NCBI GenBank assembly: GCA_028714375.1
Contig: JAQTMK010000001.1
Span: 243,636-307,635, forward strand
From: Candidatus Nanoarchaeia archaeon
Lineage (GTDB): Archaea; Nanobdellota; Nanobdellia; SCGC-AAA011-G17; JACPNG01
Direction of reading: 5' to 3'
Length of the DNA: 64,000 nt
Positions 57,221 to 63,467 of this stretch are shown here, piece after piece. Both the position numbers and the translations under genes were made by a program. Within the stretch, counting starts at the first letter, position 1. Each line of letters starts with the position of its first letter. The notes below the pieces were generated by a model that searched no databases, had not been told where the DNA came from, and worked only from the letters and a program-made list of their open reading frames with translations.

Positions 57221-57316
57221 TGGGGATGCCAGGATTTGAACCTGGATCAATCGGTCTGGAGCTTTGGCTTAATTTTGGATTAATCGACCACTCTAGCCGA
57301 GTTGAGCTACACCCCC
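57221..57316 (-). tRNA. Intron-containing tRNA (96 nt); isotype unresolved, possibly Trp(CCA) with a non-canonical ~22-nt intron
   Basis: Minus-strand GGGGGTG/CATCCCC-A acceptor, D arm GCTC..GAGT, T arm CCAGGTTCAAATCCTGG; about 22 extra nt in the anticodon region. A CTCCA / TCCAAAA motif suggests CCA, but the cloverleaf cannot be closed unambiguously by eye. Confidence 0.55.
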
Positions 57317-58342
57317 GAGCTCATCTTTAGTTAAAACAAAAATCCTATTTCCATCTATATAAAAGTTGCTTTTTTTGCCTTTAATCCTACAAACCAAAAT
57401 TCCAGCATTACAATCATCTAAAGAATTAATATACCCATTTAGTTGTTTTATATCTGAAAGAGAGATTGGTTTAGATTGGTAATCCTTTATCTCAACGAAA
57501 TACTTAGTATTCTCAATAATTAGTAGGGCATCAGCAATCCCAAGTTTAGTTTTAAAGCCGGGAATGACCAGTCCAACATTCTTTAAAATTGTAATTATTT
57601 CTTTTTCAAAATCCAAAGCCCTCTTTTTTATATCCATGTTAGAAGCTCCATAAAGAGTTTTTCTTTCAATTGGGTACTCAACTCCTGCTCTTTTGTAAGC
57701 TTCAGTTATACCACCAGTAAAAATTTCTTGTACATGAGTTTCACATTTTTTGTTAATTTCATACTGAGTTGGATTTGAGTTATTTTTTATATATTCTAAA
57801 ACTTGATTTTGTTTTTTTATTAGTCGCTTTTTACCTCCAGATATCTGGTCTAAATTTGCTTTGTTATATAATTCTCCCATATCCTTAAAATAAGAATAAA
57901 TATTTAATCCAATCTGATTTTTAATTTCTTTAGAAGTTAAAAGAGGATTTGTTTGAATTAAATTTACAATTTTTTTCGTATTAATATTCCGATAATCAAT
58001 ACATTTAATTCCTGCAACTTTATATGCCTTACTTATTGTTCCAAATATTTTTGGGATATCAATCCTCAGCTCTTTTTTAATTGAGATTGTATTAGCGCAA
58101 GCATTAGAACGAATAAACTCAATAACTTCATTGACCATTTGTTCTCTTGTTCTTTTTTGTAATGATTTTGAGAACTGAATGCCTGCCTTAATATATGCAG
58201 ATTTCATTCCATTTTTGGGATATAATCTTTCAACTTTAATTTTAGTATCCTGTCTAATCCCCCTATATGTAGCGTTAGGATTTTTTCTTAAATAATTAAT
58301 TAACTCTTCTTCTTTTTTATTAAAATTTTTGTATAGATTCAC
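57293..58342 (-). CDS. Triple HTH-like repeat protein with a C-terminal PD-(D/E)xK (Hjc/Mrr-like) nuclease domain
   Basis: Three ~50-aa repeats ending in ..AYK.AG.. (ISKAYKVAGIK, MGELYNKANL, ITEAYKRAGVE), then C-terminal FEKEIITILKNVGLVIPGFKTKLGIADALLIIENTKYFVEIKD resembling the Hjc/restriction-endonuclease core (E...D...E.K). The 3' end overlaps the tRNA gene. Confidence 0.55.
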   Translation of the reverse strand: MNLYKNFNKKEEELINYLRKNPNATYRGIRQDTKIKVERLYPKNGMKSAYIKAGIQFSKSLQKRTREQMVNEVIEFIRSNACANTISIKKELRIDIPKIFGTISKAYKVAGIKCIDYRNINTKKIVNLIQTNPLLTSKEIKNQIGLNIYSYFKDMGELYNKANLDQISGGKKRLIKKQNQVLEYIKNNSNPTQYEINKKCETHVQEIFTGGITEAYKRAGVEYPIERKTLYGASNMDIKKRALDFEKEIITILKNVGLVIPGFKTKLGIADALLIIENTKYFVEIKDYQSKPISLSDIKQLNGYINSLDDCNAGILVCRIKGKKSNFYIDGNRIFVLTKDELGGVAQLG

Positions 58343-58402: not shown

Positions 58403-59104
58403 CTAACGGTAGTATTTCATGATATCTTCAATCTCGTCTTCAGAAATAGCACATCCTCTTAATTTTAATCCCCATAATAAACCCTCTAGAAGATTTTTTT
58501 TAAGGTCTATCTCAACCTTAGCCCCGTTCTGTTTAAGATAATCATCAAGAACTCCAATCTCAAAACCAACAGACATTAACTCAGTAGATCTTAGAATATT
58601 AATTTTTTTAAATTCATCTTTGAAAAAATCAAGATTATCTTTGTTTACCTCAATCTTGCTGTGTAATTTTCTTTCAAATAATTTAACCAAATCCTTAGGA
58701 TCTTCAACCAATAACCTTAAAGTTCTCTCATCAACAATCAAAGCATCTGAATTAAGGTATTCAGCCAAGGCCAAACATTCCATATCATTCTGACTTACCA
58801 AAGTTATCCAATTTCCTCTTGCCCTAATTAAGTTATTTGCTCTGTCAGCTATCTGTTTTGCTCTTTCTTTAACTCTTGGATTAGAATAAATCTCCAAAAT
58901 CCCTTTATTGACTTCAGACAAAACCTGAATCGCTTCTAATTTATATTTTTTAGAATCAAGTGGTTTAATTATAAGTTCTTCTTTAATGCCTTCAGGAATA
59001 TAAAACTGTCCTTTGAATTTTTCTTTTAGTTTTGAAAGACTCCAGAGTAAATCATTTGTTACTATGCTTATTATTGCACTTGAGTCAAAAACAAGCGATT
59101 TCAT
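58403..59104 (-). CDS. PIN-domain nuclease with a C-terminal extension
   Basis: LVFDSSAIISI (first Asp), ECLALAEYLNSDALIVDERTLRLL (third/fourth acidic motifs) match the PIN/VapC pattern; 233 aa; start overlaps the upstream gene by 4 nt. Confidence 0.55.
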   Translation of the reverse strand: MKSLVFDSSAIISIVTNDLLWSLSKLKEKFKGQFYIPEGIKEELIIKPLDSKKYKLEAIQVLSEVNKGILEIYSNPRVKERAKQIADRANNLIRARGNWITLVSQNDMECLALAEYLNSDALIVDERTLRLLVEDPKDLVKLFERKLHSKIEVNKDNLDFFKDEFKKINILRSTELMSVGFEIGVLDDYLKQNGAKVEIDLKKNLLEGLLWGLKLRGCAISEDEIEDIMKYYR

Positions 59105-59670
59105 ACTTCAAATATTCTCCTTGCTATTTCAAGTCTCTCTTTTGTTTTTTTTGTAACAAGGGGTTCAGCATCAGTAATGTCTATGTTTCCAAGATAGCTC
59201 ATCAGGTCCCAGGTGGATATTCCTAGAATTTGTGCAGCTCTTGAAGCAGATACTCCATGCTCATAAATTTTAGAACCTTTCTTGACTCTTGCACTGTTAA
59301 TCACAGAAATAATATATTTACCCAACTGGCTTTCAATCTTGGACATGCTTTTAAGTATCAGGCTTATTGAATTGTTGTATTTTATAACATCATCTCTTTC
59401 AAGACCTTCTTTTGCCTTTCCAAGATATAAAACCAAATCCTTGCTAAATCTTTCCCACTTCTTACTGTGAGTTAATTCAGGATTGTTGAAAATTTTGTAC
59501 AAAGAATAAACAACAATGGTGATACTTATTGAAGAATCATCCTGGCTTGTTGTGGCATTATGGATAGTGTGATCAGAAATTTCCTTTAAAGCTGTAACAT
59601 CGTTCTTTGAAATTGCTACTAAGGCTTCATTAATAAGATTTATTATATCCTTTTTTATTAGGTCATTCAT
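59101..59670 (-). CDS. HTH-containing protein upstream of the PIN gene (antitoxin/regulator candidate)
   Basis: 189 aa; C-terminal GVSASRAAQILGISTWDLMSYLG helix-turn-helix; its start lies 1 nt after the lgt stop. Confidence 0.5.
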   Translation of the reverse strand: MNDLIKKDIINLINEALVAISKNDVTALKEISDHTIHNATTSQDDSSISITIVVYSLYKIFNNPELTHSKKWERFSKDLVLYLGKAKEGLERDDVIKYNNSISLILKSMSKIESQLGKYIISVINSARVKKGSKIYEHGVSASRAAQILGISTWDLMSYLGNIDITDAEPLVTKKTKERLEIARRIFEV

Positions 59671-59671
59671 T

Positions 59672-60418
59672 TTATCTCTTTTTTATTAAAAGGTATATAG
59701 ATATTAGGAACAAAGGAATATTTAAAAGTTGCCCTAAAGTTAAACCACCAATCAGTCCTATCTGAACATCTGGTTCTCTGTAAAACTCTAGGATAAATCT
59801 CAAAACAGAATACAAGAACAAAAACAATCCAAAATTAAACCCGTCTTTGTGCTTATTTTTCCTTGTTGAAAATAAAACAATAAAAATAAACAGATTTTTT
59901 AATGATTCATAGATCTGTGATGGATGTCTGTATCCCTCTGCGTTTGGAAACTTAACAGCCCATGAGACATTGGTTACTCTTCCGTATAATTCTCCGTTTA
60001 TGAAATTACCAATCCTTCCTAAACACAACCCTAAAGCCAAGGGTATTACAGAAATGTCTGCTAGTTTCCAGAAATTTATTTTTTTAATTCTGGAATAAAT
60101 AAGGCCAGCAACTATTGCTCCAGCTAATCCCCCATGGAAAGATAACCCCCCTTTCCAAAGCATGATTATTTCTTCTGGATTTAATATGAAATAATTTAGA
60201 TTGTAAAACAAAACATAAAATATTCTTGCTCCAATTATTGCTCCTATAATCCCATAAAATAAAAAGTCCTCTACGTTTAGGTTAAGTTCCTTTTCCCTTG
60301 AAAGTTTTTTTAGTATAAAATAAGCCAAGATTAATGAAATAACATAGATTAATCCGTAATATCTTATCTCTAATCCAAAGACTGTCAGTAAGGTTGGATT
60401 TAAATTATGGATAAACAT
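59672..60418 (-). CDS. lgt: Prolipoprotein diacylglyceryl transferase
   Basis: 248 aa polytopic membrane protein with the Lgt signature LCLGRIGNFINGELYGR (G-R-x-x-N-F-x-N-x-E-x-x-G). Confidence 0.75.
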   Translation of the reverse strand: MFIHNLNPTLLTVFGLEIRYYGLIYVISLILAYFILKKLSREKELNLNVEDFLFYGIIGAIIGARIFYVLFYNLNYFILNPEEIIMLWKGGLSFHGGLAGAIVAGLIYSRIKKINFWKLADISVIPLALGLCLGRIGNFINGELYGRVTNVSWAVKFPNAEGYRHPSQIYESLKNLFIFIVLFSTRKNKHKDGFNFGLFLFLYSVLRFILEFYREPDVQIGLIGGLTLGQLLNIPLFLISIYLLIKKR

Positions 60419-60505: not shown

Positions 60506-60988
60506 TTATCTTTTTAATGAATTCATTACTTGCTTAAGTTCTTTATAATTAATCAAAATAACCAAAATAATATATAAAATTTCCATTATAGCAAGTAACC
60601 CAACAACAATTAAGAAATAATCTTGCCACACATCAAAGAGGGATTGATAATTTTTTATAATATAATCTATTAAGGCAATTATAGAAAATATTAAATTCCA
60701 AAAAGTAAAATATACGAAGATGAAAGCAATAAGGTTATCATTAATGAATATTTCTTTAAGTTTTTGTGAAAGTTCATCTCCTTTACTCTCTCCGAGTTTA
60801 GATTTCCATCTATCTTTAATGACTATATATCCTACTGAAATGATTGCTGAAATAAAAAGAAACATAGAACTACTAAAAGAAAATCTATCTATTATAGCTA
60901 AAATTAAGAATATGGATGTTGGAGCAAAAAGCCCATATTTTTTAATTCCTTTCTCTAAATCTAATATTTTGAATATTTCCTCACTCAT
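60506..60988 (-). CDS. Integral membrane protein, hypothetical
   Basis: 160 aa with four hydrophobic helices. Confidence 0.5.
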   Translation of the reverse strand: MSEEIFKILDLEKGIKKYGLFAPTSIFLILAIIDRFSFSSSMFLFISAIISVGYIVIKDRWKSKLGESKGDELSQKLKEIFINDNLIAFIFVYFTFWNLIFSIIALIDYIIKNYQSLFDVWQDYFLIVVGLLAIMEILYIILVILINYKELKQVMNSLKR

Positions 60989-61094
60989 TATAGCTAAAAT
61001 TAGCCATTTCCCCTTTATATTTTTTGTTTTCTTATTTCTTATATTTTCTACCTTTTAAGTCCCTCTTACTTAACAATGCACGTCTACACAGGGA

Positions 61095-61664
61095 TTAAGG
61101 CTCTAATAATTTTTTTAATTTCAGGTGAACTTTGATAACTACTTCTTTAAAATCACTAACTAACTCCTGAATATTATCATATTCCACAAATTTTTTTTGT
61201 ATTGAACTAAACTTTACACCCCCCTTACATAGCTGAACCATTGCTTCATCATAATCAAGATTGTGGTGAAAGGCATTTCTTATAGCTCCAATTACGTTCA
61301 AATCATTAAATAAATCGTTATCAATTAGATTAATCTCAATATTCTTAGTTGGATGATTAATATGAATCATCTTTAAAAGAATTATTTTCCCAAAATAATC
61401 AATATATCTAGTTTTTAAAAAATCAGCAAAATCTGAATATTCCAGAAGAGTGGACTTTCCAGTTAAAGTCTTAACCAATAATTCATCAATTTTAAGTTCT
61501 ATATGGAGATGACCATTAAGAAATACATTTCTAGGATTACTTTGTTTTAAGGCTTCATAAAGATTATATCTCTTAGAAGTGTAACGACCAATTTTTATTT
61601 TTTTGAGTCCATCATAGTAATCGTGGGTGACCTCACCAACATCTATTTTGTTTAATCCTTTCAT
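61095..61664 (-). CDS. HEPN-domain protein
   Basis: 189 aa; C-terminal GAIRNAFHHNLDY contains the HEPN Rx4HH motif in a helical context. Confidence 0.5.
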   Translation of the reverse strand: MKGLNKIDVGEVTHDYYDGLKKIKIGRYTSKRYNLYEALKQSNPRNVFLNGHLHIELKIDELLVKTLTGKSTLLEYSDFADFLKTRYIDYFGKIILLKMIHINHPTKNIEINLIDNDLFNDLNVIGAIRNAFHHNLDYDEAMVQLCKGGVKFSSIQKKFVEYDNIQELVSDFKEVVIKVHLKLKKLLEP

Positions 61665-61669
61665 CTTAC

Positions 61670-62047
61670 CTAAACCACTTTAATCTCAGGCTCATCTGGA
61701 GTCTGTTTTGAATCTGGTTGTGGGAAGTTAATCAAAATTCCTTTTTTAATGCCTAAAACTTCCATATACTTTTTTAGCTGGACTTCTTCTTTATTACTTA
61801 ATTTAGTTCCAACAGCTTTAAGCTCAATAATCATCTTTCCGTCTTTGCCTTCATTAATAATTAAATCTGGTATTCCCTGACCTACATTATACTTTTTGTA
61901 GAAAATGGGAACTATCCTTTGGTTTTCATAAGGTATCTTGTTTAATCTTAAACCAACTTCCATAGCCTTTTGATAAATACATTCTGTGTGACCTGAGCCT
62001 AATTCATTAAACACATCTTTTGCTATTTCTTTTATCTTGTTTATCAT
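61670..62047 (-). CDS. GxxExxY-family protein (PD-(D/E)xK-like)
   Basis: 125 aa; GHTECIYQKA matches the GxxExxY signature; followed by a D...E.K-like segment (IPDLIINEGKDGKMIIELKAVG). Lies 5 nt upstream of the HEPN gene. Confidence 0.5.
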   Translation of the reverse strand: MINKIKEIAKDVFNELGSGHTECIYQKAMEVGLRLNKIPYENQRIVPIFYKKYNVGQGIPDLIINEGKDGKMIIELKAVGTKLSNKEEVQLKKYMEVLGIKKGILINFPQPDSKQTPDEPEIKVV

Positions 62048-62088
62048 TTAAGCCTCCTAAAACCTCATTTTTGGTGGGTTCTGGGTGT

Positions 62089-62493
62089 TTATATAGGTTT
62101 ACTTACTCTCAGATTTTTTTCCTTTTTCTCAGTTCTTTCATCAAAAAAATCTTTAAGTTCTTTTTTTAAGGAATTAATCTTATCTTTATGATGGGTTTTA
62201 TTTATAATTTCATTTTTTAACAGATTATCAAATAACTCTTTTTTCTTAAAAATAATTTCTAATTTTCTCAGTTCTCTTTCTTCTTTATAATTATTATACA
62301 TTTCACCCATACCCCAAAGGGTTAAGGGCACACCAAGAACGTATAGATAAAGAACTGGGCAAGTTTGAGTTAATCCAATACATATATTCTTAATACTAGC
62401 ATAATACCAAGCTCCCCCCAAACACAAGAGTCCAATAAAGGTTATTAAAAAATCGTATCTGACATATTTTGGTGGATTAAACAAACCATTCAT
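62089..62493 (-). CDS. Membrane protein, hypothetical
   Basis: 134 aa; two TM helices, then a charged C-terminus. Confidence 0.45.
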   Translation of the reverse strand: MNGLFNPPKYVRYDFLITFIGLLCLGGAWYYASIKNICIGLTQTCPVLYLYVLGVPLTLWGMGEMYNNYKEERELRKLEIIFKKKELFDNLLKNEIINKTHHKDKINSLKKELKDFFDERTEKKEKNLRVSKPI

Positions 62494-62497
62494 ATTA

Positions 62498-62728
62498 CTA
62501 CCTCATAATTTTGGATAAACTAAATACAAGAGTTGCAAATAATAAAATTGCACTTATATATTTTAAAGGTTCTATATCTTTAGTTACGCTAAAAAACATA
62601 AAAATAGTTGTCAAGGTCGCAGAACCTAATATCATTAAATCCCTTATCTCAATTTTACTCATATTCAAATTTAAATGTATTATTCCTTTAAATTCCTTTT
62701 CTTTGGGTTTTTTCCTCATTTTCACCAC
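62498..62728 (-). CDS. Small membrane protein, hypothetical
   Basis: 76 aa; two hydrophobic helices. Confidence 0.4.
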   Translation of the reverse strand: MVKMRKKPKEKEFKGIIHLNLNMSKIEIRDLMILGSATLTTIFMFFSVTKDIEPLKYISAILLFATLVFSLSKIMR

Positions 62729-62831
62729 CTTCCTGCTTTAAGCCACGCATTTGACACCTCTTTTTAGCCACGAATTTTGGACGAGACCCTCAAAAGAAAA
62801 TCTTTTAAACAAAGACTATTATTTAATTCTA

Positions 62832-63467
62832 ATGAAAAAAGAGGTAATATTTATAATCTGTGCCCATTCAGATGATGAAGCCATTGGCATGGGCGGAACC
62901 ATTTTCAAATATCTTGAAGAAAAAAAACAGTTGGTAAAAATAATATTCTCTTTTGGTGAACAGTCACATCCACATATAAAAGAAGAGCACACTAAAAAAA
63001 CAAGAGTAAAAGAAACAACAAGGATAGAAAAAAGACTTGGAATTAAAACTTATTTCTTGGGTGTTAAAGATTTTAAAATTAAAGATGAAATCCATAATAG
63101 TAAGCTAAAAGAAAATCTCTCAAATCTTATCAAAAAATACAAACCACAAAAAATATTTATGACTTCTTTGAATGATATTCACACAGATCATAGGGCAGTT
63201 GCAAATATAACTCTCGATACATGCAGGAAAATTAAATATCCTGGGGAGATCTACACCTATGAAGTTTGGGCTCCAAAAAAAGAAAATAACCCTTACATCT
63301 ACGTTGATGTTTCAAAATATCAAAAAAAGAAAATAGAACTAATAAAAGAATTTGTAAGTCAAAAAATATACACCTATCCGTTGTTATTCCTTTATTTTTT
63401 AAGATCAAGAAGCTATGGTAAAAAAATTCAGTCAAAATATGCAGAGAGGTTTTACAGAATACAATGA
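62832..63467 (+). CDS. PIG-L/LmbE-family N-acetylglucosaminyl deacetylase
   Basis: IICAHSDDEAIGMGGTI is the PIG-L AHPDDE zinc-binding motif. Start trimmed to M at 62832. Confidence 0.75.
   Translation: MKKEVIFIICAHSDDEAIGMGGTIFKYLEEKKQLVKIIFSFGEQSHPHIKEEHTKKTRVKETTRIEKRLGIKTYFLGVKDFKIKDEIHNSKLKENLSNLIKKYKPQKIFMTSLNDIHTDHRAVANITLDTCRKIKYPGEIYTYEVWAPKKENNPYIYVDVSKYQKKKIELIKEFVSQKIYTYPLLFLYFLRSRSYGKKIQSKYAERFYRIQ

Follow-up and report, generated by a model that had tools for sequence, protein, structure and literature searches.

A stretch of 64,000 nucleotides (nt) from contig JAQTMK010000001.1 of Candidatus Nanoarchaeia archaeon (positions 243,636 to 307,635; hereafter the window) carries a gene for a 189-amino-acid (aa) protein which belongs to a previously undescribed, small family restricted to DPANN archaea. 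The explanation that we favour, with moderate confidence, is that of a solitary gene from a divergent branch of the HEPN superfamily, accessory and mobile, linked to a transposon in one clade of the family. Its adjacency in the window to a gene of the GxxExxY family would be specific to this genome. An earlier note on this DNA had proposed that the two neighbours form a defence module. What is new here, an undescribed DPANN-restricted and probably HEPN-like family with a transposon-linked clade, is mostly tangential to that proposal.

The two genes are as follows:
61095-61664, minus strand: open reading frame (ORF) of the 189-aa family, the translation of which carries RNAFHH (IRNAFHHN)
61670-62047, minus strand: ORF of the 125-aa GxxExxY / PDDEXK_3 protein, with TIGR04256 and PF13366 matches

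These ORFs do not overlap, which lends no support to the translational coupling proposed in the earlier note. A spacer of 5 nt (GTAAG) separates the TAG stop codon of the 125-aa ORF from the ATG of the 189-aa ORF, and a Shine-Dalgarno-like AGGT is found just 5′ of this ATG. The earlier description of two minus-strand ORFs 5 nt apart was accurate, and the peptides that it had singled out (GHTECIY, IPDLIINEG...IELK and IRNAFHHN) were all found in the translations. Both genes are part of a minus-strand run encoding proteins of 76, 134, 125, 189 and 160 aa, Lgt, and proteins of 189, 233 and 349 aa, tightly packed and co-directional over more than 5 kb. Because of this packing, the short spacer is weak evidence of a functional link. 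Co-transcription of the 125-aa and 189-aa genes in this genome is plausible.

The exact 189-aa protein is represented by one NCBI record, annotated as a hypothetical protein, and has no match to the Pfam, NCBIfam and PADLOC models. A word-indexed search of 5.8 billion proteins returned one relative, with 40% identity, and HMMER, run exhaustively over 1.84 billion cluster representatives, gave 27 family representatives at E<=1e-3. Contig scans located the family in genome contigs (11 loci) and in metagenome contigs (22 loci), and homologs with 30-42% identity are found at more than 30 independent loci. All named records of these scans, the 11 genome matches included, are DPANN metagenome-assembled genomes (Woesearchaeota, Pacearchaeota, Nanoarchaeota), though two of the records are titled 'uncultured Methanosarcinales'. 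A viral fold search in BFVD and a tblastn search of phage genomes found nothing for the family; the only match in IMG/VR corresponds to the 4.3-kb contig of metagenome locus L016, with no context other than the transposase.

The most conserved feature of the family is RNxFxH, at residues 129-134 of the 189-aa protein. In an alignment of 21 sequences, K93, R129 and H134 are invariant while R45, E56, D60, N130 and F132 are nearly so, N130 being present in at least 90% of the members. The signature (I/V)(G/A)x(V/I)RNxFxHxL is found in 34 of 36 family sequences, the R-x4-H spacing is preserved in all 36, and residues 43-56 of the 189-aa protein read NPRNxFLNGxLxxE. The earlier note had pointed to an Rx4HH HEPN motif at the C-terminus. 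Its R129 and H134 are indeed invariant, but the second H that it included, H133, is not conserved and is replaced by Q in most family members. With 5 R and 8 H in the 189-aa protein, about 0.2 Rx4H matches are expected by chance. Thus, the match taken alone lies within chance. It gains its meaning from the family, in which R129 and H134 never vary and N130 and F132 hardly do.

The AlphaFold2 model of the 189-aa protein, computed with the 21-sequence alignment, has a predicted local distance difference test score (pLDDT) of 92.3 and a predicted template modelling score (pTM) of 0.85. According to DSSP, the N-terminal half of the model contains a three-stranded beta unit (12-33), a helix (44-68) bearing R45, E56 and D60, and two short helices (77-83 and 90-99), the latter with K93. 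The C-terminal half is made of a beta hairpin, a helix (116-134) ending with R129...H134, a loop, a helix (138-147) and a long helix (165-187). In HEPN domains, the Rx4-6H motif lies at the C-terminal end of core helix 3 of a four-helix up-down bundle, where it enters the loop to helix 4 (PMC3710099), the residue following the R is usually N, D or H (Anantharaman et al. 2013, PMC3710099), and inserts between helices 2 and 3 are common (PMC3710099). The model is consistent with these three rules, with its motif helix followed by a loop and by two further helices. Foldseek searches of the PDB with low- and high-confidence models placed MtlR (6kcr) and YggD (3c8g) on top, with probabilities of 0.75-0.96, the other matches being HepT (7bxo/6m6w), 2q00 and Cas13d. 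MtlR and YggD have been assigned to the DUF4145-like HEPN assemblage (PMC3710099), and a DUF4145 match of 15.5 bits in family member P0020 spans exactly the motif helix; this signal is subthreshold and occurs in one or two members when the 189-aa protein and 20 relatives are compared with Pfam, NCBIfam and PADLOC.

Several results weigh against a HEPN assignment. The best Foldseek matches are not significant (E about 0.05-0.4, TM ~0.4). Family profiles built from 2 and from 21 sequences retrieved noise only from the PDB sequences (PseH, PDCD4), hhalign of the family profile with E. coli MtlR gave a probability of 0.13, and a search of the 5.8 billion proteins with the family profile at E<=10 returned zero matches outside the family. 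In these comparisons, then, the family did not resemble any known HEPN family to a significant degree, either by profile or by structure. The canonical acidic residue of HEPN domains is located in helix 2. In the present model, the near-invariant acidic residues E56 and D60 sit in the first long helix, not in helix 2. The HEPN assignment of the earlier note is thus plausible, given that the model, which is a confident one, has the invariant RNxFxH ending a core helix and that HEPN proteins come first among the fold matches. It is not demonstrated, because no profile matches and these fold matches have Foldseek E-values of at least 0.3. Most likely, the family lies within the HEPN superfamily, as a divergent branch nearest to the DUF4145/MtlR-like group.

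With the DUF4145-like HEPN proteins (PF13643, MtlR/YggD), the family would share an all-alpha core, the R-N-x3-H motif with a polar residue after R, ending a core helix and entering a loop, as well as the nearest structures and the weak match on the motif helix. It differs from them by the non-significance of its own match, by the displaced second conserved acidic position, and by features of its own, namely the N-terminal three-stranded beta unit, the NPRNxFLNGQLxxE sequence and the restriction to DPANN. Standalone proteins with an extra N-terminal module are also found among many abortive infection (Abi)-type HEPNs. In particular, AbiD/AbiF (Abi_2), AbiJ, AbiU2 and AbiV, which are single-protein HEPN systems, are likewise solitary and without a conserved antitoxin partner, combine an N-terminal non-catalytic module with a HEPN-like C-terminal part, and have a patchy, accessory distribution in variable regions. 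In contrast to them, the 189-aa family has no PADLOC or Pfam Abi match, and no association with phages or defence islands was seen. Because the family has no conserved partner, it resembles single-gene Abi-type HEPNs more than the toxins of toxin-antitoxin systems.

Considering these features, a mechanism may be envisaged. The 189-aa protein would be a metal-independent endoribonuclease, with R129, N130 and H134, where core helix 3 ends, as its active residues. As in characterized HEPN RNases (PMC3710099), H134 would activate the 2′-OH, while R129 and N130 would stabilize the transition state or bind the backbone. R45, E56, D60 and K93 are probable supporting residues, and the protein probably acts as a dimer. 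In HEPN RNases, two Rx4H motifs meet at the dimer interface to make up a composite site. The N-terminal beta unit could be a sensor or binding module and, together with the NPRN...E...D helix, would serve to bind the substrate or to regulate the protein. We infer for the family its homology to HEPN proteins, its RNase activity and any biological role, for example as single-gene Abi-like defence or element addiction.

A second line of evidence concerns mobility. At four loci (L016, L023, L026 and L028, the site of the latter being sampled again in L039-L045), a gene for a transposase of 402-411 aa is found directly upstream of the family gene, on the same strand, and its stop codon lies about 20 nt inside the family ORF. 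The transposase matches DDE_Tnp_IS240 (PF13610) with 37-42 bits (cut-off 27), as well as IS66 DDE models with like strength, and its N-terminus carries SWIM and InsA-type zinc fingers. The resulting unit of about 2 kb, transposase plus family gene, is present in DPANN metagenomes in differing genomic contexts:
L016:2329-4190
L026:3725-5614
L028:3605-5490
L023:182-1907

The DNA similarity among these loci (75-86%) spans both the transposase and the family gene, and conservation stops sharply about 45 nt past the family stop codon (...AAGTCCCTAA..GACAATC), beyond which all loci diverge. Six further, solo loci of the same clade (L005, L009, L011, L018, L022 and L031) have an intact family gene, immediately preceded by remnants of the 3′ end of the transposase gene. 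These loci thus stem from the two-gene unit and have lost the transposase. In a neighbour-joining tree, the transposase-linked and remnant-bearing copies form one tight clade. The ratio of non-synonymous to synonymous substitution rates (dN/dS) of the family gene is 0.08-0.22 between pairs, including pairs in which both copies are without transposase. Copies that have lost the transposase are thus still subject to purifying selection, and the family gene is therefore maintained for its own function. The window copy falls elsewhere in this tree, together with solo genes on long branches (L006, L013, P0008, P0010 and P0012-14). No transposase homolog was found in the window, and neither a conserved end motif nor a flanking repeat surrounds the family gene there.

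The ~2-kb unit may be an undescribed archaeal insertion sequence (IS) with a passenger gene. It weighs against this view that the searches for terminal inverted repeats, IS6-style GG...TGT ends included, gave nothing significant, and that the putative IS has no left end that could be found. As a consequence, the passenger status of the gene is deduced from overlap and co-conservation. IS6-family elements with passenger genes have been described as very rare, one case, ISDsp3, with a single such gene, being known (PMC7986276), and archaeal IS6 elements have been reported to measure about 700-750 bp (PMC7986276), whereas the transposase linked to the family has about 400 aa and a zinc-finger form. 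Toxin-antitoxin pairs, including HEPN/MNT, occur inside Tn3-family transposons (PMC7157771). The present clade differs from these by carrying one gene, without MNT or another antitoxin. It resembles transporter IS (tIS) and transposon-borne toxins by its tight linkage to a transposase and the conservation of the ~2-kb unit across contexts, and departs from tIS in that IS ends were not found and in that the window copy has no transposase. Overall, the family gene would be accessory and horizontally mobile, placed like an IS passenger gene in one recently radiated clade, while the window copy represents a different, deep-branching clade, without transposase, in a strain-specific islet of five genes. 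Two possibilities are suggested by the transposase linkage of that one clade, namely a host benefit that stabilizes the element, or addiction brought about by the gene.

Two further observations were made on copy number and insertion. The 27 contigs carrying P0031 were considered as a possible multi-copy element; this was rejected, since they sample one insertion site in many metagenomes. At locus L001 (JGI Ga0392328_0391127), a direct repeat of 35 nt (L001:157-191 and L001:825-859; 74% identical, z=5.2) ends at two stop codons. One closes a Rad50/SMC-type ATPase gene and the other the family gene, whose insertion lies 2 nt past the ATPase gene. The two proteins end with ...KKEGGVSRRDG* and ...KKEEGVSQREG*. 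This looks like an insertion that duplicated the 3′ end of the host gene, or like a recombination footprint. A duplicated host 3′ end of this kind was not seen in the window or at the other loci.

Does the association with the GxxExxY gene recur? The earlier note had seen in the pair what looks like a defence-island module, and had named a lack of recurrence in other genomes as an outcome that would refute this. The gene-neighbourhood survey gave that outcome: flanks of 5-6 kb were free of GxxExxY homologs at all 34 other family loci, and the two closest genomes do not have the pair at their syntenic loci (L046 and L048). The immediate neighbours of the family gene vary in nearly every genome and include eIF2-gamma, FtsZ, the rpL3 operon, the exosome operon, a Rad50-type ATPase, restriction-modification (R-M) methylases and many hypotheticals. 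Among the ORFs up- and downstream of the family loci, phmmer and blastp revealed no conserved small partner besides the transposase. A large Eco57I/MmeI-type R-M methylase gene is located within 2-3 kb of the family gene at three loci (L014:449-3115, L028:134-2218 and L022:2782-4455). Such methylase genes are the only recognizable defence-type neighbours seen around the family, and their adjacency is not conserved.

The 125-aa protein is, judging from profile matches, an unambiguous full-length member of the GxxExxY / PDDEXK_3 family, with a predicted PD-(D/E)xK fold. It scores 84 bits with TIGR04256 (cut-off 35; profile positions 3-109 of 116) and 95.7 bits with PF13366 (cut-off 22; positions 5-110 of 117), and the assignment proposed earlier for this protein thus passes both curated cut-offs. 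The signature residues G19-H-T-E22-C-I-Y25, D61 of IPD and E74-L-K76 of IELK are all present, and weak likeness to other PD-(D/E)xK families (VRR-NUC, NucS, Cas4) was observed. The protein therefore shares the full length and all signature residues of the family, and nothing sets it apart. The GxxExxY family has no known function and has been described as prone to horizontal transfer among bacteria, archaea and viruses (PMC3424549). Its genes are solitary in two bacterial replicons, where they have unrelated neighbours (radA and a FAD-dependent protein in one case, a hypothetical protein and Fic in the other), and the pairing seen here is not a family trait. In the window, the GxxExxY homolog is present in a single copy (61670-62047). 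The GxxExxY gene is probably an independent, promiscuous, co-resident small nuclease-fold gene. The adjacency is specific to this genome; the two genes are probably chance neighbours and do not form a conserved two-component system. Hence, the GxxExxY-HEPN pairing should not be passed on as a defence module, which is the negative value of the original finding.

The local setting of the window copy is described by three features:
60506-62728, minus strand: islet of five small co-directional genes, encoding a 76-aa transmembrane (TM) protein, a 134-aa TM protein, the GxxExxY protein, the 189-aa family protein and a 160-aa protein with four TM segments
59672-60418, minus strand: Lgt, prolipoprotein diacylglyceryl transferase, full-length (PF01790), a conserved flank of the islet
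62751-63467, plus strand (opposite to the islet): PIG-L, a conserved flank of the islet

For the five islet genes, tblastn gave no match in L046 or L048. In contrast, identities of 51-84% were obtained there for the flanks (Lgt, the downstream 189-aa/233-aa pair, PIG-L, and the 413- and 420-aa genes), Lgt itself being 84% and 79% identical. The gene order Lgt - 189 aa - ~234 aa - ... - FixG_C-like - SMC is common to the three genomes, while upstream of Lgt each of them has different genes. Compared with L048, the PIG-L/glycosyltransferase pair is inverted relative to Lgt (window 60506-63467 vs L048:1611-8750), and the GC content of the islet is slightly lower (0.24-0.28 vs ~0.30-0.33). The segment between Lgt and the PIG-L pair, wholly different in three related genomes, suggests a local hotspot of rearrangement and gene turnover. 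Thus, the pair sits in a strain-specific islet at a rearrangement point.

This setting does not correspond to the defence island that had been imagined. The neighbourhood is of the housekeeping type, the surrounding 20 kb containing RNase HII, SMC, a methyltransferase, a nucleotidyl transferase, Lgt, PIG-L, a nucleoside phosphorylase-type glycosyltransferase (PF02885/PF00591/PF07831) and surface proteins, and PADLOC gave zero defence matches for the flanking proteins of the window. What had been called a tRNA-linked nuclease cluster a few kb away is actually more than 11 kb distant and consists of housekeeping genes (RNase HII, SMC, methyltransferase). Small membrane proteins do flank the pair, as had been noticed, the 76-, 134- and 160-aa ORFs having multiple hydrophobic segments, but such neighbours are not enriched family-wide (6 of 40 genes adjoining the family gene against 24 of 167 elsewhere in the same loci, p=1).

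With this evidence in hand, the competing explanations can be weighed. That the motif and the gene would be fortuitous, as a spurious or decaying ORF in AT-rich DNA, agrees with the chance expectation of the Rx4H match and with the lack of database annotation. This idea hardly deserves any credence: it is effectively refuted by the conservation of the family, with its numerous independent loci at 30-42% identity and their invariant residues, by dN/dS values well below 1 and by an AlphaFold2 pLDDT of 92. More attention is due to the possibility that the family is a novel helical protein serving the transposon, for instance a DNA- or RNA-binding regulator or an accessory factor of the IS6-like transposase, the solo copies being domesticated or relic regulators. 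The overlap of the two genes in four independent contexts and the conservation of the unit as a block agree with such a role, as does the lack of a significant HEPN sequence or structure match; moreover, MtlR, the best fold match, is itself a non-catalytic regulator (PMC3710099). However, the most conserved residues of the family are those of the HEPN catalytic signature R-N-x-x-x-H, in what would be its canonical structural position. In addition, a transposase is lacking in most members, among them the window copy and all the deep-branching lineages. These genes are nevertheless intact and strongly constrained by purifying selection, which argues for a function independent of transposition. 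We regard a transposon-serving role as unlikely.

It may also be imagined that the pair is in this genome a genuine two-gene defence or toxin-antitoxin-like system, acquired jointly, in which the nucleases cooperate or one restrains the other. The genes share one strand, a 5-nt spacer, an SD-like AGGT before the second start and one strain-specific islet, both proteins have nuclease-type folds or motifs, and HEPN and restriction-endonuclease-fold domains are often joined in defence contexts (PMC3710099). The 5-nt spacing in particular leaves some room, at the expense of the favoured explanation, for a functional link peculiar to this genome. However, the short spacer carries little weight among genes packed co-directionally over more than 5 kb. 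The family lacks GxxExxY neighbours within 5-6 kb at its 34 other loci, its deep 'solo' clade has no partner conserved throughout, and the neighbours of GxxExxY genes elsewhere are unrelated. Furthermore, neither protein matches a PADLOC defence model, bar a weak likeness to the Cas4 fold. A two-gene system therefore seems quite improbable, and a solitary, HEPN-like accessory gene that is a chance neighbour of GxxExxY remains the preferred explanation.

Other genes next to the islet deserve mention. Lgt is classically a bacterial enzyme. The Lgt of the window has thousands of homologs, many of them in records named Woese- or Nanoarchaeota. Beyond it, the ORF at 59101-59670 (minus strand) encodes a second protein of 189 aa, with a weak UPF0175 match at its C-terminus (E=0.08); the ORF at 58403-59104 (minus strand, 233 aa) overlaps it by 4 nt, scores below the threshold with PIN (21.3 bits) and also has a faint DUF3368 record. 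Together, these ORFs (58403-59670, minus strand) resemble the known UPF0175/DUF3368-PIN toxin-antitoxin arrangement and, unlike the pair flagged earlier, they are conserved and syntenic beside Lgt in the two closest genomes, with 63-83% identity. Further on, a 349-aa ORF (57293-58342, minus strand) gives several weak helix-turn-helix-type matches, and its C-terminal ADALLIIENTKYFVEIKD looks by eye like a candidate PD-(D/E)xK nuclease core. This ORF is missing from L046 and L048 as well and is thus also strain-specific.

DPANN archaea have tiny genomes and depend on hosts. To our knowledge, very few defence or conflict systems are known in these organisms. It is possible, if doubtful, that a DPANN-specific branch of HEPN RNases began or was captured as a passenger of an IS6-like element and was kept by the host after loss of the transposase for single-gene RNA-targeting immunity or addiction, the window copy being old, domesticated and possibly cooperating with GxxExxY. 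If true, no HEPN gene without antitoxin would have been known before on an insertion sequence in archaea whose genomes are ultra-small. More generally, a mobile, partly transposon-borne, probably catalytic HEPN-like family kept by selection would add a candidate RNA-targeting conflict gene to DPANN archaea, and its transposon-linked clade would exemplify an insertion sequence with a nuclease passenger gene.
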